Shown one piece after another: positions 6,599 through 25,018 of a stretch of 27,194 nt of DNA (its first letter is position 1; each line of letters begins with the position of its first letter). This DNA is from a virus (Duplodnaviria > Caudoviricetes): the IMG/VR virus record IMGVR_UViG_3300046115_000084, positions 1 through 27,194 of that record; one strand, given 5' to 3'. The position numbers and the translations under genes are program-made. Under the pieces are notes generated by a model. It was not told the DNA's origin, ran no database searches, and was given only the letters and a program-made list of their open reading frames with translations.

Positions 6599-6599
6599 G

Positions 6600-6815: not shown

Positions 6816-6831
6816 TCCGGAGGTATTGCTG

Positions 6832-8201: not shown

Positions 8202-8710
8202 GCACCCCGCTCCCGCCTCCCTACTACGGGCCCGGCGCGACGTTGAGCGCGGGCACCGTGACGGTGCCGTTCGATGTGGCAGGCGCCAGCGCCGCCCTCG
8301 ACCGCGCGACCGCGACTCTGAAGCCGGGCCAGCACGGCGCGCTGACGGTGCAGATGACGAAGTCGACCGGCTTCGGCGCCGGCCTGGTCCTCCGCGGGCC
8401 GTTCAACATGGAGGCGCTCGGCACGCTCTCACGCCCGCCGGCGGGCGGCTGGGGCTGGTCCGTGGGCGGCCGCATCAGCTTCCTCAAGAGCCTGCCTGAC
8501 GACGCCGTCAAGCCGATCGTCCTCGAGCCGCCGCCCCCGCCCCTGATCCGCATATGGAACGCGGCCATGGGCGCGGCGGTCGTGCAGCACGCGGCGCCGA
8601 CGTGGAGCGAGCTCTACGGGCTGTTCCGAAAGCAGGGGCACGGCAAGGTCAAGGCCGCGATCAAGGCGTCCCGCCTCGCGACCGGAGCCGAAGTCACGGT
8701 GAAGGTGTAG
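8198..8710 (+). CDS. Hypothetical protein with YadA-anchor-like beta-strand segment
   Basis: ATGA-coupled ATG 8198; AGASAAL...PGQ...four Gly-rich strands ending WGWSVGGRISF. Confidence 0.65.
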   Translation: MSTPLPPPYYGPGATLSAGTVTVPFDVAGASAALDRATATLKPGQHGALTVQMTKSTGFGAGLVLRGPFNMEALGTLSRPPAGGWGWSVGGRISFLKSLPDDAVKPIVLEPPPPPLIRIWNAAMGAAVVQHAAPTWSELYGLFRKQGHGKVKAAIKASRLATGAEVTVKV

Positions 8711-8787
8711 CGGGCGTGGGAGTGCTCACGAAGATCAAGGCGGGGCTGCAGCTTTCACGAGCGGCCGATCGCCTCAAGGAGGCAAGC

Positions 8788-9144
8788 ATGAAGGGCAAGC
8801 TCATCTCGTCGCTCTACGGCCTTGGCACGTTCGTCGTCGCAGGCGTCGTCTCACAGGTCCGGTCGACGTGCCCGGGGCTGATCGAGAACCTCTGGCCCCT
8901 CGCGGGCGGCGCGATCGTCGCAGGCATTGCGCTCTTCGTGCAGGCGCCGTCGAAGGGGCGCGGGCTGAAGGCGACGCTGCTGTTCGCCGGAACGTGCCTC
9001 GGCACGGCAGCAGCATCGAGGCTCACCACGGTGTGCCCCGCGGTGCTCGCCGAGGGCTGGTCCATCGTTACGGTCGGCGCCGCCGCTGGCCTCGGCCTCT
9101 ACCTCCGCAGCCCGAAGGAGACGGCCGCCGCACCGGCCAAGTAG
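8788..9144 (+). CDS. Multi-TM membrane protein with internal duplication; holin candidate
   Basis: AAGGAGG SD before ATG 8788 (GTG 8716 alternative); about four hydrophobic segments; in lysis cluster. Confidence 0.65.
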   Translation: MKGKLISSLYGLGTFVVAGVVSQVRSTCPGLIENLWPLAGGAIVAGIALFVQAPSKGRGLKATLLFAGTCLGTAAASRLTTVCPAVLAEGWSIVTVGAAAGLGLYLRSPKETAAAPAK

Positions 9145-9757: not shown

Positions 9758-10134
9758 ACGACTCGACACGGCGCCGCCATCCCCCGACGCCGTCGGCGCT
9801 CGCGCGCTCGATCGCTGCTCTCAGACATGGGATGCGCGACCTTCGCCGCGAGCAGCGCGCCATGAAGCGCGAGCAGCAGAAACAGGGAGTGAAGCTCAAT
9901 CGTCTGTCGCGCGACCGGGATATCGGGGTCAGGGCCCTGGCCATGATCAGCGAGGTGCGGATGCACATTGCTGAGGTAAGGACTATCAAGCTCGCGCTGA
10001 TAAAGCACACGAACGAGCACTTCGACAAGCTCCGCCACGACCTCAATCTCCCGCCCAGCTACGTCGAGACGGTCCCGGGCAAGACGGTACCCGCCACGCA
10101 CGACGCGGCGAGTTTCAGGAGGAAAGTCCGATGA
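9754..10134 (+). CDS. Basic coiled-coil hypothetical protein
   Basis: GGAGG SD, ATGA coupling at both ends. Confidence 0.65.
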   Translation: MNDSTRRRHPPTPSALARSIAALRHGMRDLRREQRAMKREQQKQGVKLNRLSRDRDIGVRALAMISEVRMHIAEVRTIKLALIKHTNEHFDKLRHDLNLPPSYVETVPGKTVPATHDAASFRRKVR

Positions 10135-11255
10135 AGAGAGGCGCCCTCACCCTTGTGCTGCTGTTGGCGCTCTTCGCGCCCGCCGGCGCTCTCGCCCAGT
10201 CCGTGGGCGAGAGCTTCATCCGGTACATCCCGCCAGTCTCGGTCTCGGCCGCAGCCTTCCCGCTCCTCGCGCCCAGCGGCACGGCTGCCGCGCCGTCTTA
10301 CAGCTTCACCGCTTCGCCCGGAACCGGGATGTTCTGGGAGACGGGTCAGTCGCTCCTCGGATTCGCCCACGGCGGCACGGCTCGAGCCTTCATGGCCGCC
10401 GAAGGTATCAGGATGCCCAATGGCAACCACGTCGGGTTCTGTACAGGCGCCGACTGCTCGGCGACAGACGCCAGCATCGCGAGGGGTCCGATCTCTGGAT
10501 CGCTGAAGATCGCGAACGGGGGCGCCGGAGACGGCATCCTGACAATCGGGAATGGCACGGCAGCGTCTCCAAGCGTGCAGTTCACCGCCGACGCTGACGG
10601 CTCGGGCACGGGCATCTACCGCAGCGGTGCGAACACGCTCGACATCGCGAATAACGGCACGCAGACATACTCCTTCGGCGTGTCGGGCATGAGCACCGCC
10701 AACAGCGCGTCGATCACCGTGACGGGCTCGGGCACCTTCGCCGCTCCTGACGGGACGGCGGCGCTGCCGTCCTATCGCTTCAACTCGAGCGGTAGCACCG
10801 GATTTTCTTACAACACGACGGCGAACGATGCCCTCGTCACATCGAAGGGGGGTGTCGCACGCACGGTCGTCACGGGCGACCGAACCCTCACCGACGCGAC
10901 GGCGACCACGATTTTCCAGATAGCGATCGCGAACGCCGAGGTGACGAACCTCCAGGTGCACTACTCGGTCACGGCGGTCAATGGGACGCCGGACTACCAG
11001 GGCATCACCGGGACGTTCTACGTCTCGATCGTGAATAAGAGCGCGACTGAAACGTGCTCCACGATCACCGAGGCGGGCGAGACCTCGGCCGTCAGCGCCG
11101 GGACGATCACCTTCACGGCCACGTGCGACACGTCGCCCGCGAACGCCGTGAACATCCAGGTCAACAGCGATTCCTCGCTGACGACCCCCACGATCGTCGG
11201 TCAGTTCATCATCCACCGCAGTGGCATCGGCACCGGCGCAATCACGATCAGCTAG
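10131..11255 (+). CDS. Signal-peptide-bearing fibre-like protein with three GTAAxPSxxF repeats and a C-terminal beta domain
   Basis: AGGAGG SD; MKRGALTLVLLLALFAPAGALA|Q; Thr/Gly/Ser-rich; 4 mature Cys. Confidence 0.85.
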   Translation: MKRGALTLVLLLALFAPAGALAQSVGESFIRYIPPVSVSAAAFPLLAPSGTAAAPSYSFTASPGTGMFWETGQSLLGFAHGGTARAFMAAEGIRMPNGNHVGFCTGADCSATDASIARGPISGSLKIANGGAGDGILTIGNGTAASPSVQFTADADGSGTGIYRSGANTLDIANNGTQTYSFGVSGMSTANSASITVTGSGTFAAPDGTAALPSYRFNSSGSTGFSYNTTANDALVTSKGGVARTVVTGDRTLTDATATTIFQIAIANAEVTNLQVHYSVTAVNGTPDYQGITGTFYVSIVNKSATETCSTITEAGETSAVSAGTITFTATCDTSPANAVNIQVNSDSSLTTPTIVGQFIIHRSGIGTGAITIS

Positions 11256-11270
11256 AAGGGGAGGCAGACC

Positions 11271-11672
11271 ATGAAGAAGCGAACGATCCGGGCGCTGTTG
11301 CTGGTGGCGATCCTCGCCCTCGCAGTCAGCGCGTGGGCCATGACACTAAGTTACAGCTCGGGCGCAACGGGCATTTCTGTCAGCCAGACGAACACGAACA
11401 TCCCCTTCACCAATAACCACAGTGGAGGAGACAGCGCGACGTTCCAGGCGAAACACGTCCTGATTCGATCACGCAGCGCCAGCGCGAACACCTGCCACTT
11501 CGACCTGGGCGACGGAGTAGCCACGACGGCCGATCCTACTCTTGCTCCAGGCGCATCGATCGCCGTGGACTGGGACCAGAGATCAGGGGGCGTCGGTGGT
11601 GGCTGGTCGGCGATCGGGGTCATCTGTACGACAGCCCAGACCGCAACGTGGGACATCGACGCTTGGCGCTGA
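11271..11672 (+). CDS. Signal-peptide-bearing small beta-sandwich protein (decoration/spike-like)
   Basis: GGGGAGG SD; MKKRTIRALLLVAILALAVSAWA|M; 2 mature Cys. Confidence 0.8.
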   Translation: MKKRTIRALLLVAILALAVSAWAMTLSYSSGATGISVSQTNTNIPFTNNHSGGDSATFQAKHVLIRSRSASANTCHFDLGDGVATTADPTLAPGASIAVDWDQRSGGVGGGWSAIGVICTTAQTATWDIDAWR

Positions 11673-11712
11673 ACGTGCGCTGCGCGTACTGCGATCGAGG
11701 CCGGGGCGGCTT

Positions 11713-11757
11713 GGGTCCTTCCACCGGATCGCCCGATCGCGGGTCAAACGGGCGCGA
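11713..11757 (+). other. Candidate cos packaging site (cosQ + cosN)
   Basis: GGGTCCT (lambda cosQ heptamer) at 11713-11719; 17 nt later dyad TCGCG-GGTCAAACGGG-CGCGA (11737-11757); directly upstream of terS. Confidence 0.7.
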
Positions 11758-11797
11758 AAACCCCGCAGGCAACAGGAGCCATTAGGGCTTACGCCTT

Positions 11798-12307
11798 ATG
11801 ACCACCGCCAGGAAACGCCGCGGGCTGCTGAAGCGCGCAGAGCTCGCCAAGCGGCTCGGCAAGCACCCGCAGACGATCAGCGACTGGACGGCCGCGGGCT
11901 GCCCTGTGGCGCGGCGGGGACGCACCGGCAGCCCGATCCTGTACTCGGAGCGCGACGTGCGCGCCTGGCTGGCGGCGCGCGAGGAAGAGGCCCGGGCGCC
12001 GGATGGTCCGCTCGATCCGATCCAGGAGAAGGCCGCGCGCGATCACTGGCAGGCCGAGCTCGCGCGGCAGACCCACGAGATCCGGCACAAGACGCTGCTG
12101 CCCGCGGCCGACGTCGAGCGGGCCTGGGCGGCGGAGGTGGCGGCGGTCCGGGCGAAGCTGCTCGCGCTGCCCACGACGTACTCTGACCGGATCTACCGCG
12201 CGTCGACACTGGATGGCCTGGCCGGCGTGGAGAAGACGGTTCAAGCGGCGGTCTATGACGTCCTGCGGCAGCTCGCAGGGGCCTTGCCCAAGGAGGGGGC
12301 CGCTTGA
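11798..12307 (+). CDS. terS: Terminase small subunit, lambda Nu1-like
   Basis: N-terminal wHTH (RAELAKRLGKHPQTISDWTAAGCP...Y..RDVRAWL), coiled coil (EKAARDHWQAELA), LLPAADVE...LLALP. Confidence 0.9.
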   Translation: MTTARKRRGLLKRAELAKRLGKHPQTISDWTAAGCPVARRGRTGSPILYSERDVRAWLAAREEEARAPDGPLDPIQEKAARDHWQAELARQTHEIRHKTLLPAADVERAWAAEVAAVRAKLLALPTTYSDRIYRASTLDGLAGVEKTVQAAVYDVLRQLAGALPKEGAA

Positions 12308-14223
12308 GTGCCTGCGCCCCCGCGGTCGACACGGTCCTCGCTCGGGTCAGGTCCGGGTGGGCACCGCCGCCGCTTCTCAGGGTTTCGGAGTTCTGCGACC
12401 GGGAGCTGGTGGTGACGACTGGACCCCTGGCCGGCACGCACTGGCAGACGGAGTTCGCGCCCTACCAGCGGGGCATACTGGACGCGCTGCACGAGCCCGG
12501 GGTGGAGTACGTCGCGGTGCGGGGGTCCTCGCAGTTCGGGAAGACATCGATCGCCGTCGCGGTGGTGGCCTATCACATCGGGCACGACCCATGCCCGATC
12601 CTGATCGTGGAGCCCACGGTCGACCCGATGGCTCGAGACTTCGCGAAGAATCGGCTGGACCCCGTGATCGCAGCCAGCCCCCGGCTGCGCGAGAGCGTCT
12701 CGAAGAGGCGGGCAAAGGACTCGAGCAACACGATCCTCGCGAAGACGTTCCGGGGCGGCAGCCTGTCCATCGGGGGGGCGAATTCAGCCGCCTCCCTCGC
12801 GGCCAGGTCGATCAGGGTCCTGATTCTTGACGAGGTCGACCGATACCCGGCGGAGCTGCCCGGGGAGGGCTCCACGATCCAGATCGCCCTGAAGCGCACG
12901 GCCGCCTATCGGGGGCGCCGGCGGATCATGCTGCTGTCGACCCCGACGGTGAAGGACGGCGCGATCGACTCCTGGTTCAAACGCGGGGACCAGAGGCGCT
13001 TTTACGTGCCCTGCCCGCAGTGCCAGCAGATGCACGCCTTCGAATGGCGCAACGTGCGGTGGGAGGACGGGGACCCCGACACCGCGCGGCTCCACTGCCC
13101 AGCGTGCGACTACGCGATCGACGACGCGCAGCGGATCTCGATCCTGAGCCGCGGGGAGTGGCGGCCGGAGAATCCGCAGCGGAAGGACCGCTCCATCGTG
13201 TCGTTCCACATCTGGGAGGCCTACAGCCCCTTCAGCTCGCTCCGGGAGATCGTGGGCGCCTTCCTGCGCGCGCGGGAGGCTCAGAAGGCCGGCGACAAGG
13301 CCGAGATGCACACCTGGCAGAACACGACGCTCGGGGAGCCCGTGGAGCCCGAGCGCGGGCAGGGGGTGGAGCCTCACGCGCTGCTGTCCCGCGTCGAGGC
13401 ATACGAGGCCCAGGTGCCGGCCGGAGCCTGCTTCCTGACGATGGGGGTGGACACCCAGGACGACCGCCTCGAGGCGCTCGTCGTCGGATGGGGGCCAGGG
13501 GAGGAATCCTGGCTCGTAGACCGCCATCGGCTCGATGGAGACACCACGCAGCCCGGGCCGTGGGCCGAGCTCGACCAGCTGCTCGCCCGGCAATACCTCC
13601 ACGCCACCGGAGTCCGCCTCGGCATCGCGGCGACCTGCCTGGACACCGCTGGCCACCGCACGACCCAGGCCTACGACTACGTGCTGAAGCACCGCCAGGC
13701 GGCGCTGCGCCGAGTGTACGCAACGATCGGGCGCGACGGCCAGCGTCCGATCGTCTCATCTCCCTCCCCGCGCACCTGGGGGAAGGGCGGCCGCCCCGTG
13801 GATCTCTACACGATCGGCGTCGACGCGGCGAAGTCCCTGCTGCAGGAGCGGCTCGCGCTCATCGAGGAGGCGACCGAGAAGGACGCTCCGATCCTCACGG
13901 GCAGCGGTCCTGGTCGGATCCACCTGCCGACCGAGGAATGGGCGGACGACGAGCTGGCGTCGCAGCTCACCAGCGAGCGGCTGGTGACGAAGTACACGAA
14001 GGGAATCGCGGTCCAGATCTGGAAGCAGATCCGGGCCCGGAACGAGATGCTCGACTGCGCGGTGCTGGCGCTTGCCGCGCTCCGCTTGGCTCGCGTGGAT
14101 CTCACGCTCCTCGCGGATCGGATGGCACGGCCGCAGCCGGTCCCGCCGCCCCAGCCGCCGAAGCCGGCCAAGGCGCCGTGGATCAACCGTCGTGGTGGTG
14201 GCTGGATGAAAGGAGGCCGTTAA
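12304..14223 (+). CDS. terL: Terminase large subunit, lambda gpA family
   Basis: PYQRGIL, SSQFGKT (Walker A), LILDEVDRY (Walker B), STPT, GDQRRFYVPCPQC, NTTLGEP, GVDTQDDRLE, RNEMLDC. Confidence 0.97.
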   Translation: MSACAPAVDTVLARVRSGWAPPPLLRVSEFCDRELVVTTGPLAGTHWQTEFAPYQRGILDALHEPGVEYVAVRGSSQFGKTSIAVAVVAYHIGHDPCPILIVEPTVDPMARDFAKNRLDPVIAASPRLRESVSKRRAKDSSNTILAKTFRGGSLSIGGANSAASLAARSIRVLILDEVDRYPAELPGEGSTIQIALKRTAAYRGRRRIMLLSTPTVKDGAIDSWFKRGDQRRFYVPCPQCQQMHAFEWRNVRWEDGDPDTARLHCPACDYAIDDAQRISILSRGEWRPENPQRKDRSIVSFHIWEAYSPFSSLREIVGAFLRAREAQKAGDKAEMHTWQNTTLGEPVEPERGQGVEPHALLSRVEAYEAQVPAGACFLTMGVDTQDDRLEALVVGWGPGEESWLVDRHRLDGDTTQPGPWAELDQLLARQYLHATGVRLGIAATCLDTAGHRTTQAYDYVLKHRQAALRRVYATIGRDGQRPIVSSPSPRTWGKGGRPVDLYTIGVDAAKSLLQERLALIEEATEKDAPILTGSGPGRIHLPTEEWADDELASQLTSERLVTKYTKGIAVQIWKQIRARNEMLDCAVLALAALRLARVDLTLLADRMARPQPVPPPQPPKPAKAPWINRRGGGWMKGGR

Positions 14224-14471
14224 TGGCGAAGCGGAAAGAGGGCGACGAAACCGACGGAACGCCGAAAACGTCCGTGCCCGCTGGGCTCGTTCTTCAGGTG
14301 GGCGAGAGGCTTACGGTGCACGCCGCCCTGGGCGATCGTCTCACCGCCTATGTGATCGAAGCGCGGGAGGGCGGTTTGCTGCGGATGTATCCGGCACCCG
14401 AGCCGGCGCCGCCCGTACAGACGCCGGAACCAGCGGCCGGTGGCAACCAGACGAAGAAGTTCGAGGCGTAG
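14223..14471 (+). CDS. Hypothetical protein, 82 aa (MAKRKEGDETD...)
   Basis: AAGGAGG SD and TAATG coupling; 3' end of track ORF 13020..14471. Confidence 0.7.
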   Translation: MAKRKEGDETDGTPKTSVPAGLVLQVGERLTVHAALGDRLTAYVIEAREGGLLRMYPAPEPAPPVQTPEPAAGGNQTKKFEA

Positions 14472-14495
14472 GTCGGCCCTTCAGGAGTTACTTCG

Positions 14496-14702
14496 ATGGC
14501 CTGGACTCAAGCTGACGTAGACGCACTCGAGCGGGCGATCGCGGACGGCCGCGGCGCGCGATCGATCACCTTCGCTGACCAGAGCGTAACGTTTAACTCC
14601 CTCGCGGAGATGTTGGCGCTCCTGGCCACGATGAAGCAGTCGATCGCGGCCGCGGCCGGAGGATCGTCGACGCGCTACGCCGCGTTCAGCAAGGGAGTCT
14701 GA
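14496..14702 (+). CDS. Head-tail joining protein, gpW-like
   Basis: MAWTQADVDALERAIADG..SITFADQSVTFNSLAEM; located between terL and portal; AGGAG SD. Confidence 0.9.
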   Translation: MAWTQADVDALERAIADGRGARSITFADQSVTFNSLAEMLALLATMKQSIAAAAGGSSTRYAAFSKGV

Positions 14703-14703
14703 C

Positions 14704-16245
14704 ATGCCGAAGGCCAACTGGATCGATCGCACGGTGGGCTACTTCAACCCGCAGGCTGGGCTTCAGCGCATCCGGGCGCGGGCCGCGGCCGAGGTCATCC
14801 TCCGCCACTACGAGGCGGCCGCGAGCGGTCGGCGCACCCAAGGGCACAACAGGAGCATCAGCGACGCGAACGCCGCCATGTTTCCGGCCCTCTCGATTCT
14901 CCGGGCTACCGCGCGAGACCTGGTGCGCAACAACGGGCATGCCGAGAGCGCACTGACCACTATCTGTGACCACGTCATCGGGTGGGGCATCGTCGCGAAG
15001 CCGAAACCGAAGAACACGCGGGCCATGAAGGCGTGGGAGTCCTGGGCCGGGACGACGGCGTGTGACGCCGATGGCCGGCAGGACTTCGCCGGGCTCCAGC
15101 ACCTGGTGATGCGCACAGTCGTCGAGTCCGGCGAGGCGCTGGTCCGGCGCCGGTTGCGACGCCCCGAAGACGACCTACCGATCCCGCTTCAGATCCAGGT
15201 GCTCGAGCCTGACTATCTCGACACGTCGAGGACGTCGATCACAGGAGGCGGCCGGATCATCAACGGCATCGAGCTCGACGCGCTCGGCAAGCGCGCGGCC
15301 TACTGGCTGTTCCGCGAACATCCTGGCGCCGCCTCCCTGAGCTCGTTGGCATCCGTTCGGGTGCCGGCGGAGAGCGTGCTGCACGTCTATCGCCAGGACC
15401 GCGCGAGCCAGATGCGCGGGGCGTCTTGGTTTGCGCCGGTGCTGCTCAAGTTCAAGGACTTCGACGACTTCGACGACGCGACGCTCATGAAGCAGAAGGT
15501 CGCGGCGTGCCTCTCAGTGATCACGACCGACACCGATGGGACCGCGGCTCCGCTCGGCACCGTCGATCCGGAGTCGCCGACGATCGACTCTCTCGAGCCG
15601 GGCGGCATCCTGAACCTAGCGCCGGGCCGTGAGGTCCAGGTCGTGCAGCCGCCATCGGTCCGCGAGTACCCGGATTACGTGAGGACGACGTTGCGCGCCA
15701 TCGCGACGGGGCTGGGCGTGTCCTATGAGGACCTGACCGGCGACTACAGCGACGTCAACTTCAGCTCCGCACGGATGTCTCGGATGCGGCACTGGGCGCG
15801 GGTCGAAGACTGGCGGTGGCGGATGCTGATCCCGCAACTCTGCGACCCCGTCTGGGCGTGGGCGATGCAGGCGGCGGCGATCATGGGCGCCGGCGAGGTG
15901 CCCGTCGCCAGGTGGACGGCACCGCCGCTGCCGATGATCGACCCCTCGAACGAGGGCCTCGCCTACCAGCGGAACATTCGGACTGGCATCCTGACGCTCA
16001 GCGAGGCGATCCGGGAGCGCGGCTACGATCCCGACGAGTTCCTGGCCGAGTACGCCGCTGACAACGCGCGGCTCGACAAGCTGGGCATCGTGCTCGACAG
16101 CGACGCGCGGGCTACTACCCAGGCCGGCAACCCACGGACGCAGGGCGCGGAAGCCGCACCCGAGCCCGCGGCGGCGGGTGGCACACCGCCATCTAGGCCG
16201 CAGGCCGTACCAGACCCAGACCCAGACGAGGAGGACGCGGCATGA
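14704..16245 (+). CDS. Portal protein, lambda family
   Basis: LRATARDLVRNNG, GEALVR, LQIQVLEPDYLD, GIELD..G...AYW, QMRG.SWFAP, GVSYEDLTGDYSDVNFSSAR, MIDP. Confidence 0.97.
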   Translation: MPKANWIDRTVGYFNPQAGLQRIRARAAAEVILRHYEAAASGRRTQGHNRSISDANAAMFPALSILRATARDLVRNNGHAESALTTICDHVIGWGIVAKPKPKNTRAMKAWESWAGTTACDADGRQDFAGLQHLVMRTVVESGEALVRRRLRRPEDDLPIPLQIQVLEPDYLDTSRTSITGGGRIINGIELDALGKRAAYWLFREHPGAASLSSLASVRVPAESVLHVYRQDRASQMRGASWFAPVLLKFKDFDDFDDATLMKQKVAACLSVITTDTDGTAAPLGTVDPESPTIDSLEPGGILNLAPGREVQVVQPPSVREYPDYVRTTLRAIATGLGVSYEDLTGDYSDVNFSSARMSRMRHWARVEDWRWRMLIPQLCDPVWAWAMQAAAIMGAGEVPVARWTAPPLPMIDPSNEGLAYQRNIRTGILTLSEAIRERGYDPDEFLAEYAADNARLDKLGIVLDSDARATTQAGNPRTQGAEAAPEPAAAGGTPPSRPQAVPDPDPDEEDAA

Positions 16246-16595
16246 GCAGGAGAGGGCGAGCCGTGACGCCTGAGAGCCTCGAGAACCCGGAGAACGGCAT
16301 CGAGCTGGAGACCCGTGAGCCGGACGAGGCGACCGACGAGCCCGGGTCCGAGGAAAGGCTACGCACACGCATCGTCGCGCTGCGCGCGGCCCCACCGGAC
16401 CATTCCGGAGCCTACTGCAGGGCCTGCTTCCGGCGAGGGGTGATGACGCTGCTGGGGGTGATCGACGTCGAGCGGCACGACGTGCACGACCAGGTCGCGG
16501 CGCTCCAGGGCATCTACCCCCCAGACCCGGACCCCCACTCGGCACACTCCTACCGCGGTGGCGTCGAGGCGGCCCTGCGGGCGCTCGCGGACTAG
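16242..16595 (+). CDS. Hypothetical protein with CxxC (CRAC)
   Basis: GAGGAGG SD, ATGA coupling. Confidence 0.65.
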   Translation: MSRRGRAVTPESLENPENGIELETREPDEATDEPGSEERLRTRIVALRAAPPDHSGAYCRACFRRGVMTLLGVIDVERHDVHDQVAALQGIYPPDPDPHSAHSYRGGVEAALRALAD

Positions 16596-16599
16596 GGCC

Positions 16600-16845
16600 A
16601 TGGACACCCAGGACCGGGAGGGAGCGGAGGAGCTGAGCGTCCAGCCCTTGGCGGACGGGCAGCGACGCGTGCTGCGGATTATCCAGCAGTACATCGACTT
16701 CAGAGGCAAGGCGCCCACGACTGCCTACGTCGCAGAATGCCTGCAGCTCAACCACAAGACGGTCCGCGAGCACCTCCGGGCCTGCCACCGGAAGGGCTGG
16801 CTGCGGACGCCGACCCCTGGCGGGTTCTGGTGTCGCATCGGCTGA
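16600..16845 (+). CDS. Stand-alone LexA-type winged-HTH DNA-binding protein (no peptidase domain)
   Basis: LADGQRRVLRIIQQYIDFRGKAPTTAYVAECLQLNHKTVREHLRACHRKGWL matches the LexA N-domain pattern (LT.RQ..VL.FI......G.PPT..EIA...G......V..HL.AL..KG.I). Confidence 0.8.
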   Translation: MDTQDREGAEELSVQPLADGQRRVLRIIQQYIDFRGKAPTTAYVAECLQLNHKTVREHLRACHRKGWLRTPTPGGFWCRIG

Positions 16846-16910
16846 CCCCCCAAAAAATGGGGGGTGCCGAAGAGGGTCCGAAACTGAGTACCCCCCAACC
16901 TTTAGGGCTT
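16845..16910. promoter_or_regulatory. Paired palindromic operator-like sites upstream of the capsid gene
   Basis: ACCCCCCA-AAAAA-TGGGGGGT (16845-16865) and degenerate copy ACCCCCCAACCTTTAGGGCTT (16890-16910). Confidence 0.55.
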
Positions 16911-16948
16911 TCGTGTCAGCGGCGTTTCGCTGCACCGTGGAGGTCGAG

Positions 16949-19030
16949 ATGCGTCCTGTCCCGGCGGCACAGCCACAGGTCGGTCCCAGGTCGGTCCAGA
17001 TGGTCCCGCTTTCGATCCGGGCGGCGCTGGAGAGTGTCAACGAGGAGACCCGGACGGTCGACCTCGTGTTCTCGACCGGCGCCGCCGTCGAGCGCATGGA
17101 CTTCTGGACCGGGAAACGCTACATCGAGACCCTGTCACTCGAGCCCGCGCACGTCCGCCTCGAGCGGCTGAACGACGGCGGGCCCCTTCTGGACGCACAC
17201 GGGGCCTGGTCGGTTTCGGATCAGCTCGGAGCCGTCGTTCCCGGCAGCGTCAGCCTGATGAAGAAGGAAGCGCGCGCGCGTGTGCAGTTCTCGAAGCGCG
17301 CGGCCGTCGAGGAAATCTGGCAGGACGTCCGGGACGGCCTGATCCGGAGCGTCTCCGTCGGCTACAGGGTCTACAAGGTCGAGGAGACCGAGGGCAAGGG
17401 CAACGCGCTCCCGGTGCGCCGCGCGATCGACTGGGAGCCGTTCGAGATCTCGATGGTTCCGATCCCGGCCGACGCTGGCGCGAAGGTGCGCGACGGGAAA
17501 TCCGACGAAGCGAACGTGTGCGAGATCGTGCCGCCGGGATATGTCGCCCGCGCGGCAGGTCCGGTGCCAGCTGCGGCGCCGGCGAAGACTCCGGTCGCAG
17601 CAGCGACCACGACGAAGGAGACGCTCATGGAAGACCGGTCCGAGACCATCATGGATCCCGGGGATACGCCTCTGGCTCCGGCGAAGCCGGCGAAGCCAGC
17701 CGAGCCGGCCGAGCCCAACGAACGCGACGCCGGCGTCACGGCGGAGCGGGTCCGTGTGGAGGGCATCCGGAACGCCTGCCTCGCGGCCAGGCTCCCGCGG
17801 TCCTTCGAGGACAAGCTGATCAAGGAAGGCACCCCGCTCGTGGACGCTCAGGGTCGGGTCTTCGACGAGCTGCGCAAGCGCACCGATCCGAACGGTGCCC
17901 CCAGTCCCGCCGGCGCCAGCGGCATCACCGTCGGCGACGATCCGATGGAGCACAAGCGCAAGGCCATCGAAGGTGCCCTGCTGCATCGCCTGGCACCCGA
18001 CATGTTCAAGCTGGATCCCGAGGCTCGCCAGTACCGCGGCATGGGCCTCCTGGACATCGGGGACGTGTTTCTCCGCGCCCAGGGCGTGCGCATCATGGGG
18101 ATGACCAAGATGGAGCGCGCGGGAGCGGTCCTCGGGCTGGCCACGCGCGTCGGGATGCACACGATCACCGACTTCCCGCTGCTGCTCGCGGACGTCGCGA
18201 ACAAGGTGTTGCGTGCGGCCTACGAGGCTGCACCCCAGACCTGGCTGCCGCTCGCGAAGGCTGTGCCCCTCTCCGACTTCAAGGCCAGCAACCAGCTCCA
18301 GGTGGGCACCGCCCCCGCACTGCTCGAGGTCCTCGAGCACGGCGAATTCACGCGGGGAACGATCGCCGAGGCCAAGGAGGCCATCCAGCTCAAGACCTAC
18401 GGGCGCGTCTTCGCGATCACCCGCCAGGCGCTGATCAACGACGACACCGGCGCCTTCGCGGAGGTGCCGGCATCGTTCGGTCGTTCGGCTCGGAACAAGG
18501 AGAGCGACCTCGCCTGGGCTCAGATCACCAGCAACCCGGCGATGGGCGACGGCGTCGTCCTCTTCCACGCCACGCACGGCAACCTCGCCGGCGCCGCGGC
18601 CGCCATCTCCATCGACGCAATCGGGATCGGCCGCGCCGCGCTGCGCAAGATGAAGGACATCGACGCCGCGACGATCTTGAATCTGAGCCCGAACTTCCTG
18701 CTCGTGCCCGCGGCCAAGGAGACGATCGCCGACCAGTTTGTGAGCACGAACCTCATGGCATCGGGCTCCAGCGCCGTGAACCCCTTCGCCGGTCGGCTGC
18801 AGGTCATCAGCGAGCCGCGCCTCGACGTGGCCAGCGCGACGGCCTGGTATCTCGCGACGAACGTCGCGCAGTGCCCGGTGCTGCTCTACGGGACGCTCGA
18901 CGGGCAGCCCGGTCCGCAGATTGATCAGCAGCTCGGCTTCGACGTGGACGGCCTGCAGATCAAGTGCCGGCTGGACGTGGCCTTCAAGGCTGCGGACTGG
19001 CACGGGATCTTCCGGAACGACGGCGCGTAA
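16949..19030 (+). CDS. Prohead serine protease - scaffold - major capsid protein fusion (HK97 fold, Mu gpT-like capsid)
   Basis: PLLDAH, SVSVGY, WEPFEISMVPIPAD protease motifs; HTITDFPLLL.DVANK.L...Y, TYGRVFAITRQALINDD capsid motifs; GGAGG SD before ATG 16949. Confidence 0.95.
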   Translation: MRPVPAAQPQVGPRSVQMVPLSIRAALESVNEETRTVDLVFSTGAAVERMDFWTGKRYIETLSLEPAHVRLERLNDGGPLLDAHGAWSVSDQLGAVVPGSVSLMKKEARARVQFSKRAAVEEIWQDVRDGLIRSVSVGYRVYKVEETEGKGNALPVRRAIDWEPFEISMVPIPADAGAKVRDGKSDEANVCEIVPPGYVARAAGPVPAAAPAKTPVAAATTTKETLMEDRSETIMDPGDTPLAPAKPAKPAEPAEPNERDAGVTAERVRVEGIRNACLAARLPRSFEDKLIKEGTPLVDAQGRVFDELRKRTDPNGAPSPAGASGITVGDDPMEHKRKAIEGALLHRLAPDMFKLDPEARQYRGMGLLDIGDVFLRAQGVRIMGMTKMERAGAVLGLATRVGMHTITDFPLLLADVANKVLRAAYEAAPQTWLPLAKAVPLSDFKASNQLQVGTAPALLEVLEHGEFTRGTIAEAKEAIQLKTYGRVFAITRQALINDDTGAFAEVPASFGRSARNKESDLAWAQITSNPAMGDGVVLFHATHGNLAGAAAAISIDAIGIGRAALRKMKDIDAATILNLSPNFLLVPAAKETIADQFVSTNLMASGSSAVNPFAGRLQVISEPRLDVASATAWYLATNVAQCPVLLYGTLDGQPGPQIDQQLGFDVDGLQIKCRLDVAFKAADWHGIFRNDGA

Positions 19031-19074
19031 GGCTGCGGGCTCAAGCGAGGCTCTAGTAAGAAGAGAGAGGAATC

Positions 19075-19425
19075 ATGAAGACCTTCAGCCAGCCGGGAGA
19101 CGCGGTCACGTTCACTGCCCCCACCGGCGGGGTAGTCGCGGGGACCGGGGTGAAGATCGGGGATCTCCTGGTCATCCCGGACATCAGCGCCGCCCAGACC
19201 CTGCCGTTCACCGGAGTCGCGAACGGCGTCGTGGAGCACGCCAAGCTCAGCGCGCAGGCGTGGACCGAGGGGCAGCAGGTCAACTGGGACGACACGAACA
19301 AGCGGTTCACCACCGTGACCACCGGCAACTTCCGGGCGGGTGTGGCCTATGCGGTGGCCGCGAACCCGAGTGCGACCGGCCTCGTCAAGCTGGCCGGCGT
19401 CAACCTGGGGGCGGCGCTCGCCTAG
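19075..19425 (+). CDS. DUF2190 capsid cement/decoration protein
   Basis: MKTFSQPGDAVTFTAP.GGVVAG..VKIGDL...GQQVNWDDTNKRFT; follows capsid gene. Confidence 0.92.
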   Translation: MKTFSQPGDAVTFTAPTGGVVAGTGVKIGDLLVIPDISAAQTLPFTGVANGVVEHAKLSAQAWTEGQQVNWDDTNKRFTTVTTGNFRAGVAYAVAANPSATGLVKLAGVNLGAALA

Positions 19426-19446
19426 AGCGGCGGCTCCGATAGTGAG

Positions 19447-19779
19447 GTGGACCTGGGGGCACTGCGGGAGCTAGTCCGGGACGTCAACTTCGCCACTCAT
19501 GGCGTCCCGGCGACCGTCACGCCTCCAGGTGCCCCCGCCGTCACCACCCGCGTCATCTGGCTCACCCCGCTCTCCGTGCAGAGCCCGGTCGGCGCGAGCT
19601 TCACCAGGACCGAAGCCCAGCGCATCGTGGCCATCCCGCGCGACGACGTGCCCGAGGTTCCGCGTGGGACGCTCCTCGCCGTCACCGAGCCCTTCCAGTC
19701 GGCGCCTGTGGCGTGGAAGGTGGACGGGATCGACGAGGTCCGCGCTGACCACTACCGCGCCGTGGTGATCCCCGCATGA
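19447..19779 (+). CDS. Head-tail joining/closure protein (gpFII-like)
   Basis: Size, synteny and pattern FATHGVPATVTP...PRG.L......W.VD. Confidence 0.75.
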   Translation: MDLGALRELVRDVNFATHGVPATVTPPGAPAVTTRVIWLTPLSVQSPVGASFTRTEAQRIVAIPRDDVPEVPRGTLLAVTEPFQSAPVAWKVDGIDEVRADHYRAVVIPA

Positions 19780-20276
19780 GCACCGAGCCTCCCCGCAGCC
19801 GGCGGATGGCCGCGCTCGAGGACCTCCTCGCGCGCCTGGCCTACATCCAGACCGCGAAGGGCTACAACACGAACGCCGGCGCGCAGATTTTCCAGGGGGA
19901 GGCCCCCCGGTTCGGCAGCCCGGAAGACGAGCCCGCCGCGCTCGCGGTCTTCGTGGGCGACGACTCGCCCGAGATGCAGGGCGGAACGGTGCGCACCCGT
20001 GTGCCGTTCGAAATCTGGGCCTGCGTGCACGTCGGACTCGCCTCGCCGCTTCTGCTGGTTGAGGCCGTCATCGCCGACATCCGCACGGCGGTGGAGATCG
20101 AGAAGGACGGAGCCACGGATAGGTCGCTCGGGATCTTCGATGGCGTCCCGGCGACGATGCCGACCGGCTTAGATCGCGGGCCGACGCGCGCCCTCCGGCG
20201 CGAGCAGGGCAGCGAGTTTGTGGGGGCGTCGGTCGAGTACGTCGCGCGCTTCGAAACGCGCTGGGGGCAGGCGTGA
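19776..20276 (+). CDS. Tail terminator/completion protein (gpU-like)
   Basis: RLAYIQTAKGYNTNAG motif typical of this position; synteny. Confidence 0.7.
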   Translation: MSTEPPRSRRMAALEDLLARLAYIQTAKGYNTNAGAQIFQGEAPRFGSPEDEPAALAVFVGDDSPEMQGGTVRTRVPFEIWACVHVGLASPLLLVEAVIADIRTAVEIEKDGATDRSLGIFDGVPATMPTGLDRGPTRALRREQGSEFVGASVEYVARFETRWGQA

Positions 20277-20839
20277 GCATCGTGCAATTCGCCCGGGATC
20301 TCGGCGAGCTCCGGCGCGACCTGGAGGCCCTCGGAGCCCAGGGCCCGATCGTAGCCGCCCGGGCCGTGAACCGGGCAGCCACCAGCGGCCGCGCCGCCAT
20401 GGCGCAGGCGATCAGGGCGGATGCGGGGCTCGGAGGCCAGGCCGTGAAAGACGCGATCCGGATCGAGAAGGCGACGAAGTCGCGGCCCAAGGCGGTCGTG
20501 GAGGTGGCTGGCAGGCGCATTCCGCTGATCGCCTTCCAGGCGCGGGGGCCCGAGCCGTCGCGTGGCCGGGGCAGGGGGGTGTCGTACCGGCTGCCGGGCG
20601 GCCGCGGCCGCGTGCCCAACGCCTTCATCGCCCCGATGCGCAGCGGGCACCGGGGCGTGTTCAAGCGGCGCCCGGGGGCGAAGCGGCTGCCGGTCACCGA
20701 GCTGCATGGCCCGTCGATTCCGCACGTCTTCGAGAAGCGGTTCGCGGTGTTCCTGGAGGCCGCCGACAAGGCGCTCGTGAAGAACCTCGCGAGCGAGATC
20801 AGTTTCGCGCAGAGCAAAGCGCAATCGGAGCCGGAATGA
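20273..20839 (+). CDS. Minor tail/tail completion protein, lambda gpZ family
   Basis: ARAVNRAA, IPLIAFQAR, AFIAPMRSGHRGVFKR, RLPV.ELHGPSIP. Confidence 0.9.
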   Translation: MSIVQFARDLGELRRDLEALGAQGPIVAARAVNRAATSGRAAMAQAIRADAGLGGQAVKDAIRIEKATKSRPKAVVEVAGRRIPLIAFQARGPEPSRGRGRGVSYRLPGGRGRVPNAFIAPMRSGHRGVFKRRPGAKRLPVTELHGPSIPHVFEKRFAVFLEAADKALVKNLASEISFAQSKAQSEPE

Positions 20840-20850
20840 AGGAGAGGATC

Positions 20851-21420
20851 ATGAAGAAGAAGATGCTGGCCGCGGTGGCGGCCTTCTGCGCCCTCGTGCT
20901 CGCGCTCGCGATCCAGGGAGACGCCGCGACGACCCTCGCCGCCACGGTGCGGATCCAGGTCACCGGCGGCTTCGACAACGCCCTGGACCTGACCAACGTC
21001 CAGTCGCCACTGAGCTACGCCAACGCGATCGCTTTCAGCAACGGAACCGGCGCGAACCAGGCCGACGTCATCTTCACCGACACGCGGGCGGTGGCCGCGG
21101 CCGAGGACCTGGACGTATCGGCTGGCGCTTTGCAGACCGCATTCGGTGCGACGTTCACGATCGCCGAGCTGAAGCTCCTCGTCGTCTGCGCCTCGACCGC
21201 GAACACGGGCAATGTGGTGCTCGGGGGTGATGCCGCCTCCGTCCTGTTCTTGAGCGTGGCGACCACCACCACGTCGATCAAGCCCGGCGGGTGCTTCGTC
21301 TACGCAGACCCGAGCGCCACAGGCACGGCGGTCACGAACTCGACCGCGGACGTCATCCAGGTGGCGCCGTCAGCGGGCACGCAGACCTACTCGATCATCA
21401 TCATGGGCTCCTCGAGCTAG
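20851..21420 (+). CDS. Signal-peptide-bearing beta-rich virion-like protein within the tail module
   Basis: SD GGAGAGG before ATG 20851 (coupled in-frame ATG 20836); MKKKMLAAVAAFCALVLALAIQGDA|A; NGTGANQADVIFTDTR...EDLD...AFGATFT. Confidence 0.85.
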   Translation: MKKKMLAAVAAFCALVLALAIQGDAATTLAATVRIQVTGGFDNALDLTNVQSPLSYANAIAFSNGTGANQADVIFTDTRAVAAAEDLDVSAGALQTAFGATFTIAELKLLVVCASTANTGNVVLGGDAASVLFLSVATTTTSIKPGGCFVYADPSATGTAVTNSTADVIQVAPSAGTQTYSIIIMGSSS

Positions 21421-21453
21421 GCCTGCGCTCGAGCTGAAGAAGGAGAAGGAATC

Positions 21454-21885
21454 ATGGCGGAACACGCAACGCAGGCAGTCCTCGGGCACGGGACGCAGAT
21501 CCAACGCGGGGGCCTGCTCCTGGCCGACCCCTTCACGAACGTGATGGAGGTGATCGCGTTCGAGTCGCCCGACGAACAGGGCGACGACATCGAGGTGAGC
21601 CACTTCGAGAGCCCGGGCAAGATCAAGGAGTTCATCCGCGGCATGATCGACGCCGGCGAGGCCTCGATCTCCGTCAACTGGAACCCCACGGTCTACGCCT
21701 CCCACGCCTCGCTGCGCTCCGACAAGGAGGACGGGCTGCTGAGGTACTACCGCTTCATCCTGCCCGGCGCGATGGAGACGATCACCTTCCGCGCCTACGT
21801 CAAGGGCCTGAAGCGCAACGCGGACCCGAACGGCGCCGTCACGGCCGACGTCAGCTTCAAGGTGTCCACGATCACGGCCGTCTAG
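21454..21885 (+). CDS. Major tail tube protein (lambda gpV N-domain-like)
   Basis: LGHGTQIQRG, DDIEVSHFESPGKIKEFIRGMIDAGEASISVNWNP, ITFRAYV. Confidence 0.92.
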   Translation: MAEHATQAVLGHGTQIQRGGLLLADPFTNVMEVIAFESPDEQGDDIEVSHFESPGKIKEFIRGMIDAGEASISVNWNPTVYASHASLRSDKEDGLLRYYRFILPGAMETITFRAYVKGLKRNADPNGAVTADVSFKVSTITAV

Positions 21886-21893
21886 AGGACAGC

Positions 21894-22283
21894 ATGGCAA
21901 ATCGACTGAAGGGCGAGGTCGCTGTCGAGCTCGGCGTGGGCGACGCCAAGAGGATCGTGGTCTTCCGCCTCGGGATCAACGAGCTGATCGAGCTGCAGAA
22001 GGAATACGGGCTCGAGACGGATGACGAGGGATTCCTGACGGCCCTCGACAACCGGAAGAGCCTGCGGCGTCGGCGTGCTCTCGTGCGCGCGGCGATGCTG
22101 TTCAAACAGCCCGAGACGACGGAGGAAGAGGCGGGCGAGGTGATCACCGAGCTCGGGATCAAACGAATGGATGAAGTGATCGAGGAAACCCTGCAGTGGG
22201 CGTTGCCTGACAAGTCTCAGGCTCCGCAAGGCCCCACCAAGGGAAAAGCCGTCGCCGCTTCTCCTGGGACGCTGCCCTCGTAG
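21894..22283 (+). CDS. Tail assembly chaperone (gpG-like)
   Basis: MANRLKGEV...FRLGINELIELQ; located between tube and tape measure; slippery site near 3' end. Confidence 0.88.
   Translation: MANRLKGEVAVELGVGDAKRIVVFRLGINELIELQKEYGLETDDEGFLTALDNRKSLRRRRALVRAAMLFKQPETTEEEAGEVITELGIKRMDEVIEETLQWALPDKSQAPQGPTKGKAVAASPGTLPS
22241..22247 (+). promoter_or_regulatory. -1 programmed ribosomal frameshift site G GGA AAA
   Basis: X XXY YYZ heptamer in the correct phase of the G ORF; -1 frame open to 22600. Confidence 0.9.
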
Positions 22284-22600
22284 AAGCCGCCCGGGCCGGG
22301 ATCTCCCCGGACGAGTTTCATCGCTCGACGCTGAGGGAGATCGCGGTTCAGATCGCGGGTCGCCAGTGGCAACAGGAGCAGCGGGCCCGCGTCGCCGTCA
22401 TGGGGGCCTCGCTCTCCGCGAAGCTAGCTAGGCTTCCGGCGAAGCAGTTCCGCTCAGCGATTCGCTCCATTGAACGGATGCTCCAGAAAGACCCTGGCGC
22501 GACCGAACGCCAGACACCCGAACAGACGCGCGTGCTGATCCTCGACTGGGCGGCACAAGCCGGCCTGAAGGTGGAGCGTCACGAGAGGCCGGTGATCTAG
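22241..22600 (+). CDS. gpT-like extension of the G-T chaperone fusion (GKSRRRFSWDAALVEAARAGISPDEFHRSTLREI...ERPVI)
   Basis: GISPDEF...TLREI motif typical of gpT; no own start before 22400; ends flush with tape-measure ATG. Confidence 0.88.
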   Translation, partial: GKSRRRFSWDAALVEAARAGISPDEFHRSTLREIAVQIAGRQWQQEQRARVAVMGASLSAKLARLPAKQFRSAIRSIERMLQKDPGATERQTPEQTRVLILDWAAQAGLKVERHERPVI

Positions 22601-25018
22601 ATGGCCGATAGCATCCGCCGCCTCCGCGTCGAGCTCGAGGCGGGCTCGACATCCTTCGCCAAGGGCTTTAAGGACGCGGCGACATCTGTCGACGGCCTTG
22701 GAAAGAGCATCAAGAGCCTCAACATCGACAGACTCCATGCCGAAGCCCTAAGGATGAATAATGCCTTCGACGAAAGTCGAGGGCGCGCGGGCAGGCTCGC
22801 CGATAGCATCGGACGCGTCAGCACGACGCTCGCGCGTTCGGCTGCTGCCTTCGGACTCCCGACGCAGGCGCTGCGCACCCTCGACGATGTGGCCGACGTC
22901 GCGGAGCTTGGGTTCAACAATCTAACGAAGGCCGCCGTTGGCTTCAACGCCGCCTCGATCGGTGTGGCCGGCGCCGGACTTGCGATCGGAGTGGGGCTTG
23001 GGAACATTTTGAACGGGTTCCAAGCGGTACGTACGGCCGCGGACAACGCGACGCGCGGGCTATTCGACTTCCTCGCCGCGAACAAGCTCTTTGGCGAGTC
23101 CACGCGCGACGCCGGCGCCGGCCAGGAGGCGGGCATCAGCCAGTTCTCGATGGCGATGGCGGCGAAGCACGCCGAAGCCCTCGAGAAGCAAGTCGCTTCC
23201 ATGAAGGCGCAGGGCGCCTCGGTCAAGGACATCGCGAAGTTCTACGATGGATCCCTCACCCCGGCGCTCGAGAAGAAGCTCGGTCTGACGAAGGAGGACG
23301 TGAAGGCCGAAGAGCAGCACGCTGCTGCCGCGAAGAAATCGGCCGAGGCCTTCCGCGGCATGGTCGACGAGCTCTCTGGCGCCACAGCCCAGAAGCGAGC
23401 GGACGAGCTCGCCAGGGCCTTTCATGTGCTCGGCTCCAAGGGCGTGGCCGACCTCGACGCTCTGCGTCGCCAGTTGGAGCAGCTCGAGAAGCAGGGCGCC
23501 AAGATCTCGGACAAGGGCCTGTTGGGCGTTCTCCGTGGGGGCGACGTCGACGACCTCTCGTCCTTCAATCTGGGAGACCTCGGAGAGGATAGCGTCGTCA
23601 ACTTGGTCGAACGGGTCGCCAAGACTGGGGTCCAAGCCCAGCGCAGCTTCGACGCGATGGCCGCATCGTTCGCTGCAGCGAAGGTCCCGGCCGAGGACAT
23701 CGCCGACGCCCTCGATCTCGCGGGCGCCTCCGCTGAGCAGGCGCAGCGTGCGATCGCGCGGATTCCGACACTGGGCGTGGGCGCCTCGCTGAAGGCGGGC
23801 CTGGTGTCCGGCCTGAAGGGGCTTCCCCAGGTGATCCTCGGCGCGCTGCAGGGCGGCGGCGACGTCGGCAAGTCGATCGGCGCGCATCTCGGCGGTTCGA
23901 TCGGGGAGGGCATCGCCGGCCAGCTCACGAAGAAGCTCAGCGACGTCTTGGGCAAGACCCTGGGCGGCGCGCTCGGCTCCATCATCCCGGGGCTGGGCTC
24001 TCTGCTCGGGTCGCAGTTGGGGTCGCTCATCAGCAAGGGGCTCGGCAAGCTCGGAAGCCTCTTCGGCATCGGCGGCAACAAGCAGATCCAGGAGGTCAAC
24101 CGGCTCCGTGACGCCTTTCTCCAAGCGCAGGGCGGTTTCGTCGAGCTTCAGAAGAAGCTGCAGGGCCTGACGAACCAGGACCTCGTCAAGAAGATTTTCA
24201 ACGCGAAGACGGTCGAGGAGTTCAACGCCGCGGTCTCCGAGGTGACGGGGCTCCTCGGGAACCAGGAAGCGGCAACCCAGGCGCTGAAGGAAGCGACCGA
24301 CCGCTACGGCTTCAGCATCGAGGAGCTCGGGCCGACATTCCAGCGCCAGGAGCTCGACGCTCAGGCCGGCCAACTCCTAAAGGACTTCAGCCTGCTCACG
24401 GCCTCCGGCATCGACGTTGCGACCGTCATCGCGAAGATGGGTCCGAACCTGCTCGAGTTCGTGAACACGTCACGCTCGGCGGGCCAGGCGATCCCCGAAG
24501 CGATGCGCCCGATGATCGACCAGCTCCTCGCCTCGGGGCAGCTCGTCGATGAGAACGGCAAGGCCTTCGCGACTGCCGAGGAAGCCGGCATCACGTTCGC
24601 TCAGTCGCTAACGGAGGGGATGGCGGCCGTCGTCGATGAGATCCGGAATCTCGTGGCGGCGCTCACCGGGATTCCGCGCGACGTCACCACGACCGTCCAT
24701 GTCAACACCGAGCACACCAGCACCGGCGGCAGCGACATCCCGCTGCCCGAAGACGTTCAGAGCTTCGCGGACGGCGGCATCGGCAACTTCGGCTCCGGCA
24801 CGCTCGCGATGCTGCACGGCTGGGAGGCCATCGTCCCGCTCGACAGGGGAGGCGGCGCCCGCCCGGGGGGCACGCAGGTATCGATCACCCAGAACATCAA
24901 GGAAGATCCTTACCAGTCCTCCGAGGGTCGCCTCGCGCTCCGCCGGCGCACGCTCCAGATCGCGCAGCGCGAGCAGGACAAGCACCTCTCCGCCCAGATC
25001 CAAGCCGGGAAGGCGTGA
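22601..25018 (+). CDS. Tape measure protein, 805 aa (about 115-120 nm tail at ~0.15 nm/residue)
   Basis: Long Ala/Gly-rich helical protein after chaperones; C-terminal FADGG...AMLHG.EAIVPL motif. Confidence 0.93.
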   Translation: MADSIRRLRVELEAGSTSFAKGFKDAATSVDGLGKSIKSLNIDRLHAEALRMNNAFDESRGRAGRLADSIGRVSTTLARSAAAFGLPTQALRTLDDVADVAELGFNNLTKAAVGFNAASIGVAGAGLAIGVGLGNILNGFQAVRTAADNATRGLFDFLAANKLFGESTRDAGAGQEAGISQFSMAMAAKHAEALEKQVASMKAQGASVKDIAKFYDGSLTPALEKKLGLTKEDVKAEEQHAAAAKKSAEAFRGMVDELSGATAQKRADELARAFHVLGSKGVADLDALRRQLEQLEKQGAKISDKGLLGVLRGGDVDDLSSFNLGDLGEDSVVNLVERVAKTGVQAQRSFDAMAASFAAAKVPAEDIADALDLAGASAEQAQRAIARIPTLGVGASLKAGLVSGLKGLPQVILGALQGGGDVGKSIGAHLGGSIGEGIAGQLTKKLSDVLGKTLGGALGSIIPGLGSLLGSQLGSLISKGLGKLGSLFGIGGNKQIQEVNRLRDAFLQAQGGFVELQKKLQGLTNQDLVKKIFNAKTVEEFNAAVSEVTGLLGNQEAATQALKEATDRYGFSIEELGPTFQRQELDAQAGQLLKDFSLLTASGIDVATVIAKMGPNLLEFVNTSRSAGQAIPEAMRPMIDQLLASGQLVDENGKAFATAEEAGITFAQSLTEGMAAVVDEIRNLVAALTGIPRDVTTTVHVNTEHTSTGGSDIPLPEDVQSFADGGIGNFGSGTLAMLHGWEAIVPLDRGGGARPGGTQVSITQNIKEDPYQSSEGRLALRRRTLQIAQREQDKHLSAQIQAGKA

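Follow-up and report, generated by a model that had tools for sequence, protein, structure and literature searches.

Late addition of parts to a phage particle is feasible, as lambda gpD, T4 Soc and Hoc, and phage L Dec bind finished capsids, also in vitro; these proteins are cytoplasmic and leaderless. Virion proteins that pass through the host membrane machinery are known from filamentous phages, where pIII gains disulphide bonds in the periplasm, but pIII and pVIII are membrane-anchored, and their particles are extruded without lysis and have no HK97-type head or tail. Signal peptides have also been noted in five genes of Porphyromonas gingivalis phages, interpreted as host-membrane modifiers (PMC10367356), and in lyase proteins of two flavophages (PMC8776804). 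We found no description of Sec-exported virion parts of tailed phages in the full-text literature, a corpus that leaves out most subscription journals. Here we analyse three genes starting at positions 10131, 11271 and 20851 of IMG/VR record IMGVR_UViG_3300046115_000084 (Duplodnaviria; Caudoviricetes). The window is the entire virus record (27,194 nucleotides, linear, about 54% complete, GC content about 0.69), and its gene content is that of a lambda-like siphophage late region, as judged by Pfam and PHROG matches. Judging from their sequences, the three genes very probably encode exported accessory proteins, and on balance we favour the explanation that these proteins join the virion at lysis. 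The feature is real and unusual, in that accessory proteins of familiar virion types are redirected into the secretion pathway.

Cellulophaga phage phi18:3 (KC821620; Pachyviridae) has three proteins, gp085-gp087, which according to the GenBank notes are structural by tandem mass spectrometry (MS/MS). All three carry a leader that ends before Gln, while the other nine of the 12 structural proteins annotated by MS/MS in the stretch 24,000-71,443 have none. Like the window genes, gp085-gp087 are leader-bearing; they are consecutive and lie shortly before a glycosyl-hydrolase gene. Unlike the window genes, they have Bacteroidota Q-type leaders, and the record is silent on export. In phi46:3, gp079-083 are also leader-bearing, but four are called structural by similarity only and gp083 is hypothetical, which adds nothing independent to the MS evidence. 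The head spike of RcGTA (Rcc01079/Rcc01080) consists of a jelly-roll pentamer and a fibre that docks by an N-terminal peptide (PMC7296036).

Three late genes with predicted Sec leaders

All three genes lie on the plus strand. The start of gene 10131 (P0002; 10131-11255, 374 residues) is 8 nucleotides downstream of AGGAGG, a Shine-Dalgarno (SD) sequence at 10117-10122, and its predicted 22-residue Sec/signal peptidase I leader, MKRGALTLVLLLALFAPAGALA (10131-10196), would be cut between ALA and QSVG. Gene 11271 (P0003; 11271-11672, 133 residues) has GGAGG (11260-11264) 6 nucleotides upstream and a predicted leader at 11271-11339 that ends in AVSAWA; the mature chain would begin MTLS, with no SD sequence for this Met. 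Gene 20851 (P0001; 20851-21420, 189 residues) is preceded by AAGGAG (20839-20844), also 6 nucleotides upstream, and its predicted leader (20851-20925) ends in LAIQGDA, with ATTL at the mature N-terminus. The leaders have two to three basic residues in the n-region and a best 12-residue hydropathy of 2.9-3.3. None of the mature chains has a transmembrane segment, a lipobox or a barrel anchor. Their combined Thr, Ser and Gly fractions are 0.38, 0.36 and 0.32, and they contain four, two and two Cys residues, respectively, a third Cys of 20851 being inside the leader. The original prediction of strong SD sequences, signal-type leaders and these Cys counts was thus borne out, as was its statement that the cement protein (PF09956, formerly DUF2190) and the tail tube have no Cys; both are also leaderless. 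We do not use the even Cys counts as an argument, because the portal (4), the protease-capsid protein (4) and the terminase (8) have even counts as well.

Leaders were called with a home-made rule, devised after the three leaders of the window had been seen, that asks for a basic n-region, a hydrophobic h-region, small residues at -3 and -1, and no later transmembrane segment; the P0001 leader is delimited by alignment to leaderless homologues. Five of the 42 called window genes were positive: the three genes, one lipoprotein and one holin candidate. Applied to related loci, the rule picked out not one of 318 core morphogenesis proteins; among homologues of 20851 it was positive in 66 of 67 with a leader and in 2 of 51 without. 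Two leader calls in locus L060 were dismissed as false positives of the rule. An in-frame ATG lies five codons upstream of the 20851 start (P0004 was called from it), and the leader is retained either way. A frame or start artefact is ruled out for all three leaders by their SD sequences and by conservation.

It is conceivable that an internal start yields a cytoplasmic isoform that decorates particles in the normal way, the exported form being secondary. In gene 11271 an ATG coincides with the first codon of the predicted mature chain, and many close homologues share it. However, this ATG lacks an SD sequence (a match of 0 in six of eight loci and of 3 nucleotides in two, against 4-6 nucleotides at the true start) and is replaced in distant members; there is no such ATG in 20851, and 10131 has just a GTG without an SD sequence. 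We see hardly any chance that this explanation is correct.

Leaders, cysteines and folds in the three families

Residues 27-188 of 20851 match phrog_22694 (E 2.2e-32, profile positions 3-169 of 170). A protein search for this family gave 58 hits. A scan of viral sequences confirmed 242 loci, and in the 80 retained for analysis the gene is leader-bearing in 23 and leaderless in 57. Almost all leaderless members (53/55) have 2-4 residues ahead of a conserved Leu, compared with three in the predicted mature chain of the window, and leaderless P0057 begins M-ATTL. Because these starts coincide with the predicted cut, they support the cleavage site that had been proposed for 20851. Among leader-bearing homologues, mean identity to the query is 35% in the leader and 64% in the mature chain, with leader character retained. 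In locus L060 (9998-11060), the phrog_22694 gene is present in two tandem leaderless copies ahead of the tail tube.

The predicted mature chain of 20851 contains the pair Cys88/Cys123. In a count of 122 non-identical sequences (three protein hits being left out as fragments or for a bad N-terminus), the pair is found in 60 of 67 leader-bearing and none of 55 leaderless members, and the first Cys never occurs alone. In a tree of 59 representatives, leaders appear in a main clade (support 88.5/86), in a second clade (97.4/100) that includes leaderless L076, and in L055. Short tree searches argue weakly against placing all leader forms in a single clade (approximately unbiased test, p-AU 0.023; Shimodaira-Hasegawa test, p-SH 0.071). 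The link between leader and Cys pair is not phylogenetically independent and may rest on few, one or two, evolutionary events; we therefore do not count Fisher's p of 2e-9 as independent evidence. A test result against monophyly of the Cys pair (p-AU 0.003) was likewise set aside, as it can reflect losses within the main clade.

A profile search with 11271 found 180 proteins, the best 150 of which were listed; 152 sequences were scored after dropping 21 of 173 (longer than 200 residues or with a domain score below 30). The profile contained the leader, so that the sample is biased to leader-bearing forms. All 24 close homologues retain the leader; in the wider, leader-biased sample 139 members are leader-bearing, one is unclear and 12 are leaderless, the last without DNA for a check of their starts and dispersed over a poorly supported tree. 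The mature pair Cys52/Cys96 of 11271 occurs in 59 of the 139 leader-bearing relatives and in 1 of the 12 leaderless ones. A second pair, placed in the same strand and PG-x-C motif as the pair of 20851, is complete in 16 of the 152 sequences, half present in two and absent from 134; all 16 with the complete pair carry a leader. Kinship of the 20851 and 11271 families is not claimed, profile-profile comparison being suggestive at most (P 29%, E 6e-4).

P0002, the product of 10131, looks like a fibre: behind the leader it has three G-T-A-A-x-P-S-x-x-F repeats and a C-terminal β domain of about 130 residues with a Cys pair (10863-11252). Its homologues are leader-bearing in 16 of 30 cases and leaderless in 14. 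The repeats also occur in leaderless P0084, P0088 and P0091, whose sequences include the S74 fibre chaperone (PF13884); unlike these chaperoned tail fibres, 10131 has a different C-terminal domain and no S74 chaperone detectable by Pfam. The C-terminal domain recurs in 15 of the 30 homologues, 13 of them with a leader, and is common to variable leader-bearing fibres; its Cys pair is present in 11 of 15 leader-bearing and in neither of two leaderless proteins examined. Across the three families, Cys pairs are almost confined to leader-bearing forms, in sequence counts that reflect few independent origins. Homologues without a leader exist in all three families, so the check for them proposed with the original prediction had a positive outcome.

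The leaders could also be uncleaved or act as signal-arrest-release anchors; the subunits would then stay in the inner membrane until depolarisation frees them, and may still reach the particle. The leaders are rich in Ala and Gly, GDA/A of 20851 is not a textbook AxA site, and the cuts predicted by our rule fall earlier than the sites originally proposed. Against this, almost every sequence in the 11271 alignment has Ala at -1, the 20851 leader joins where leaderless homologues start, and the leaders drift in sequence while their character stays. We give this alternative little credence.

The AlphaFold2 models of 20851 and 11271 are single jelly rolls, and virion vertex and cement proteins are among their top matches. 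The 20851 model (predicted local distance difference test, pLDDT, 94.6) is all-β, with a long N-terminal hairpin preceding the jelly roll. Its matches among solved structures are Ena1C (Z 8.7, r.m.s. deviation 2.8, 94 residues aligned), Ena1B (8.0, 3.3, 95), a cupin-bearing regulator (Z 7.7), the KHP40 cement protein (7.5, 3.4, 98) and PR772 chain O (7.2, 8.8, 104). The 11271 model (pLDDT 93.4) matches SH1 chain Y (Z 7.8, r.m.s. deviation 2.9, 87 aligned), Ena1B (7.6), Ena1C (7.5) and the STIV turret protein A223 (7.5), as well as small uncharacterised Caudovirales proteins; no match reaches Z 8. The cement, penton and turret proteins (KHP40, 7DOU; PR772, 6Q5U chain O; SH1, 6QT9 chain Y; STIV A223) match the predicted folds at Z 7.2-7.8 and sequence identities of 9-15%, in a Z range (7-8.7) that cupins, GOLD domains and Ena reach as well. 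We take PR772 chain O and SH1 chain Y to be pentons, and the KHP40, PR772, SH1 and STIV proteins are presumably all made without leaders. The predicted jelly roll of 20851 is a common fold that tells no function. Neighbours of the 20851 model in the Atlas are clusters of 167-170 residues, mostly viral. Foldseek found nothing in the PDB at E 0.001 or better for this model, and sequence searches of PDB chains gave nothing significant with 10131 or with the 20851 profile, nor any Ena chain at E <=10 (profile A2). An Atlas lead, PRD1_P5_spike_N, scored 0.81, below threshold.

The Ena matches raise the idea that the jelly rolls assemble by themselves, outside the cell and independently of the particle, into disulphide-linked fibres like Bacillus endospore appendages: Ena1C and Ena1B head the list for 20851 and rank high for 11271. 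The jelly-roll core is indeed shared, but identity is 10-14% in the structural alignment with 20851 and 10-18% overall, the Z values are typical of a common fold, most of the 20851 family has no Cys pair, and its members are carried by phages and associated with morphogenesis genes. Such fibres seem to us highly improbable.

Virion parts or secreted effectors

In relatives, too, genes for these accessory proteins belong to the late or morphogenesis module. In the window, 10131 and 11271 sit between the lysis region and TerS, and 20851 sits between gpZ and the tail tube. Of 81 loci with a gene of the 20851 family, 58 have it at most two genes from a tail-tube gene and 10 have it farther off, for the most part between the capsid and head-closure genes; in the other 13 no tube was recognised. 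Leader-bearing copies accompany both lambda-type and HK97-type heads, and the core genes there are leaderless. Eight cultured-phage records contain the family. In the two examined, Streptomyces phage Hiyaa (gp9) and Bradyrhizobium phage ppBeUSDA76-1 (WAX24350), the protein has no leader, is annotated as hypothetical and is encoded among head/neck genes; both are homologous to mature 20851 at 33-43% identity and lie in the head/neck/tail module, but lack the Cys pair.

Genes 10131 and 11271 have no Pfam or PHROG family and no cultured-phage match. P0126 combines a leader, an 11271-type domain and the C-terminal domain of 10131 (39% identity over 109 residues, E 9e-17) in one chain, and therefore ties the two proteins to one structure. 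Leader-bearing fibres with the 10131 C-terminal domain are found in L092 and L093, where the gene order looks podovirus-like by eye, and adjoin an 11271-like gene in L094-L096. A gene of the 11271 family stands in phage context in eight further loci, several times after lysis-type genes (annotation by eye), and the genes upstream of it are variable and, by eye, often leader-bearing and fibre- or β-helix-like, with leader-bearing examples in L082, L087 and others. Further small leader-bearing genes belong to the fibre cassette in L092 (10410-10796) and L096 (10391-10789 and 11273-11623). P0126, P0127, P0131, P0149 and P0224 have a leader and an 11271-type domain fused to varied C-terminal passenger domains, like spikes with an N-terminal base. 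In P0175, P0182 and P0255, an 11271-type jelly roll follows a multi-transmembrane, holin-like N-terminal part, connected by an internal segment resembling a signal peptide; by their sequences, these fusions possibly link lysis to release of the exported domain.

The RcGTA spike offers a model for 11271 and 10131. RcGTA combines a jelly-roll base of small size with a fibre of 325 residues, similar in length to 10131 (PMC7296036), and the window has adjacent genes for a small predicted jelly roll and a fibre-like protein, as such a spike requires. The difference is that residues 2-10 of the RcGTA fibre bind the base, which precludes a cleaved leader. The window genes have no Pfam or PHROG hit pointing to homology with Rcc01079/Rcc01080, and RcGTA is not among the listed fold matches of 11271.

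The main alternative to virion parts is that the exported proteins never join the virion and instead serve, in the periplasm or after release, as receptor blockers, decoys or adhesins, altering the surface of the host or of neighbouring cells. Proteins of this sort are usually recognised by their export, the signal-peptide genes of P. gingivalis phages have been interpreted in this way (PMC10367356), and the variable passenger domains beside 11271 homologues suit ligand binding, be it on or off the particle. However, nothing in the mature chains would anchor them to a membrane, the three genes are co-oriented in the late region, and 20851 keeps the ancestral slot of its leaderless relatives and their invariant residues inside the neck/tail module. 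We regard an off-virion role as rather unlikely. The preferred explanation, joining of the virion, draws on gene position, ancestry and the unrelated cultured analogue phi18:3.

If so, the head and tail would be built in the cytoplasm from leaderless proteins, while the fibre (10131), the small jelly-roll base (11271) and the neck/tail jelly roll (20851) would be sent through Sec. Signal peptidase I would remove the leaders, and the chains would then fold with disulphide bonds in the periplasm of a presumably diderm host. By analogy with RcGTA, 10131 and 11271 may form a head-spike-like pair of base and fibre, with vertex decoration as a second candidate role of 11271, and 20851 would be a neck/tail accessory binding the neck or tail tube. 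Docking on finished particles would follow once lysis opens the inner membrane. We can only speculate about the gain: sticky surface-binding parts would be kept off assembling particles, or would fold in the compartment that faces the ligand.

Several observations weigh against virion joining at lysis. The phi18:3 proteins are not homologous to ours (tblastn gave no Cellulophaga hit for the window families), and their structural status is that given in the GenBank MS/MS note. The fold scores are middling (best Z 8.7 and 7.8), and cupins, GOLD domains and Bacillus Ena pili score equally. No holin was recognised through a Pfam or PHROG family match in the window, and the phage is uncultured. A search for the host among genome contigs gave a single weak partial match, to a metagenome-assembled genome of Acetobacteraceae, and none in 14 control genomes. 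The tree tests are compatible with one origin of both Cys-pair groups of 20851 (p-AU 0.26 and 0.35), and Cys96 is kept by 10 of the 12 leaderless 11271 relatives. The disulphides themselves fit incompletely. Export and virion-type ancestry, as originally predicted, are supported, and disulphide bonds are supported in that the two Cys of a pair were gained together. Oxidative folding as the sole purpose does not stand: the pair is missing from 7 of the 67 homologues of 20851 that have a leader, the number of Cys is odd in 60 of the 139 leader-bearing relatives of 11271, and phi18:3 gp085-gp087 have 0, 1 and 3 Cys. The disulphides look like a by-product of export rather than a requirement.

Surrounding genes and implications

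The leaderless lambda-like core (11798-25018, plus strand), assigned from Pfam/PHROG matches and the leader rule, comprises TerS (gene start 11798), a GpA-type TerL (12304), a lambda-family portal (14704), a protease-capsid protein (16913), the cement protein (19075), an adaptor (19447), gpZ (20273), the tail tube (21454), a tail chaperone (21894) and an 805-residue gene product of tape-measure size (22601). Two small genes between portal and protease-capsid (16263-16845), the second helix-turn-helix-like by eye, are conserved in relatives L001-L015. The close relatives L001-L008 have two tandem cement-family genes (about 206-211 and 111-113 residues; L002, region 3022-4005) where the window has one. 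The tail-tip genes after the tape-measure-sized gene (25015-27194) have no leader and no Pfam or PHROG match; homologues are found in L004, L009 and L012. Promoter and terminator scans of the window gave results at chance level.

The lysis region (6116-9144, plus strand) was assigned by PF00959 for the phage lysozyme (6116-6598) and by sequence alone for the remaining genes. Directly after the lysozyme comes a Pro-rich predicted lipoprotein of 413 residues with 17 Cys (6832-8073), by its sequence possibly a spanin substitute. It is followed by a β-rich leaderless protein (8198-8710) and a holin candidate with multiple hydrophobic segments (8788-9144), neither of which has a Pfam or PHROG match. 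Cys-rich genes likewise follow the endolysin in L096 (6346-7746, 15 Cys) and L084, with no BLAST link to 6832-8073.

More generally, we propose a two-compartment assembly of tailed phages, to which we give even chances: spikes, fibres and neck/tail decorations would travel via Sec, mature in the periplasm and be added during lysis, which would become the last morphogenetic step, and leaders would have been gained or lost repeatedly on old cytoplasmic virion families in unrelated phage architectures. The family phrog_22694 is a natural experiment in this respect, since its members from cultured phages have no leader and others carry both a leader and a gained Cys pair. If the proposal is true, the particles of such tailed phages are not finished in the cytoplasm, against the rule of a wholly cytoplasmic build, and a phage signal peptide cannot be taken to mean a non-virion host modifier, contrary to annotation practice. 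It would also open a route to displaying disulphide-bonded proteins on lytic tailed phages.

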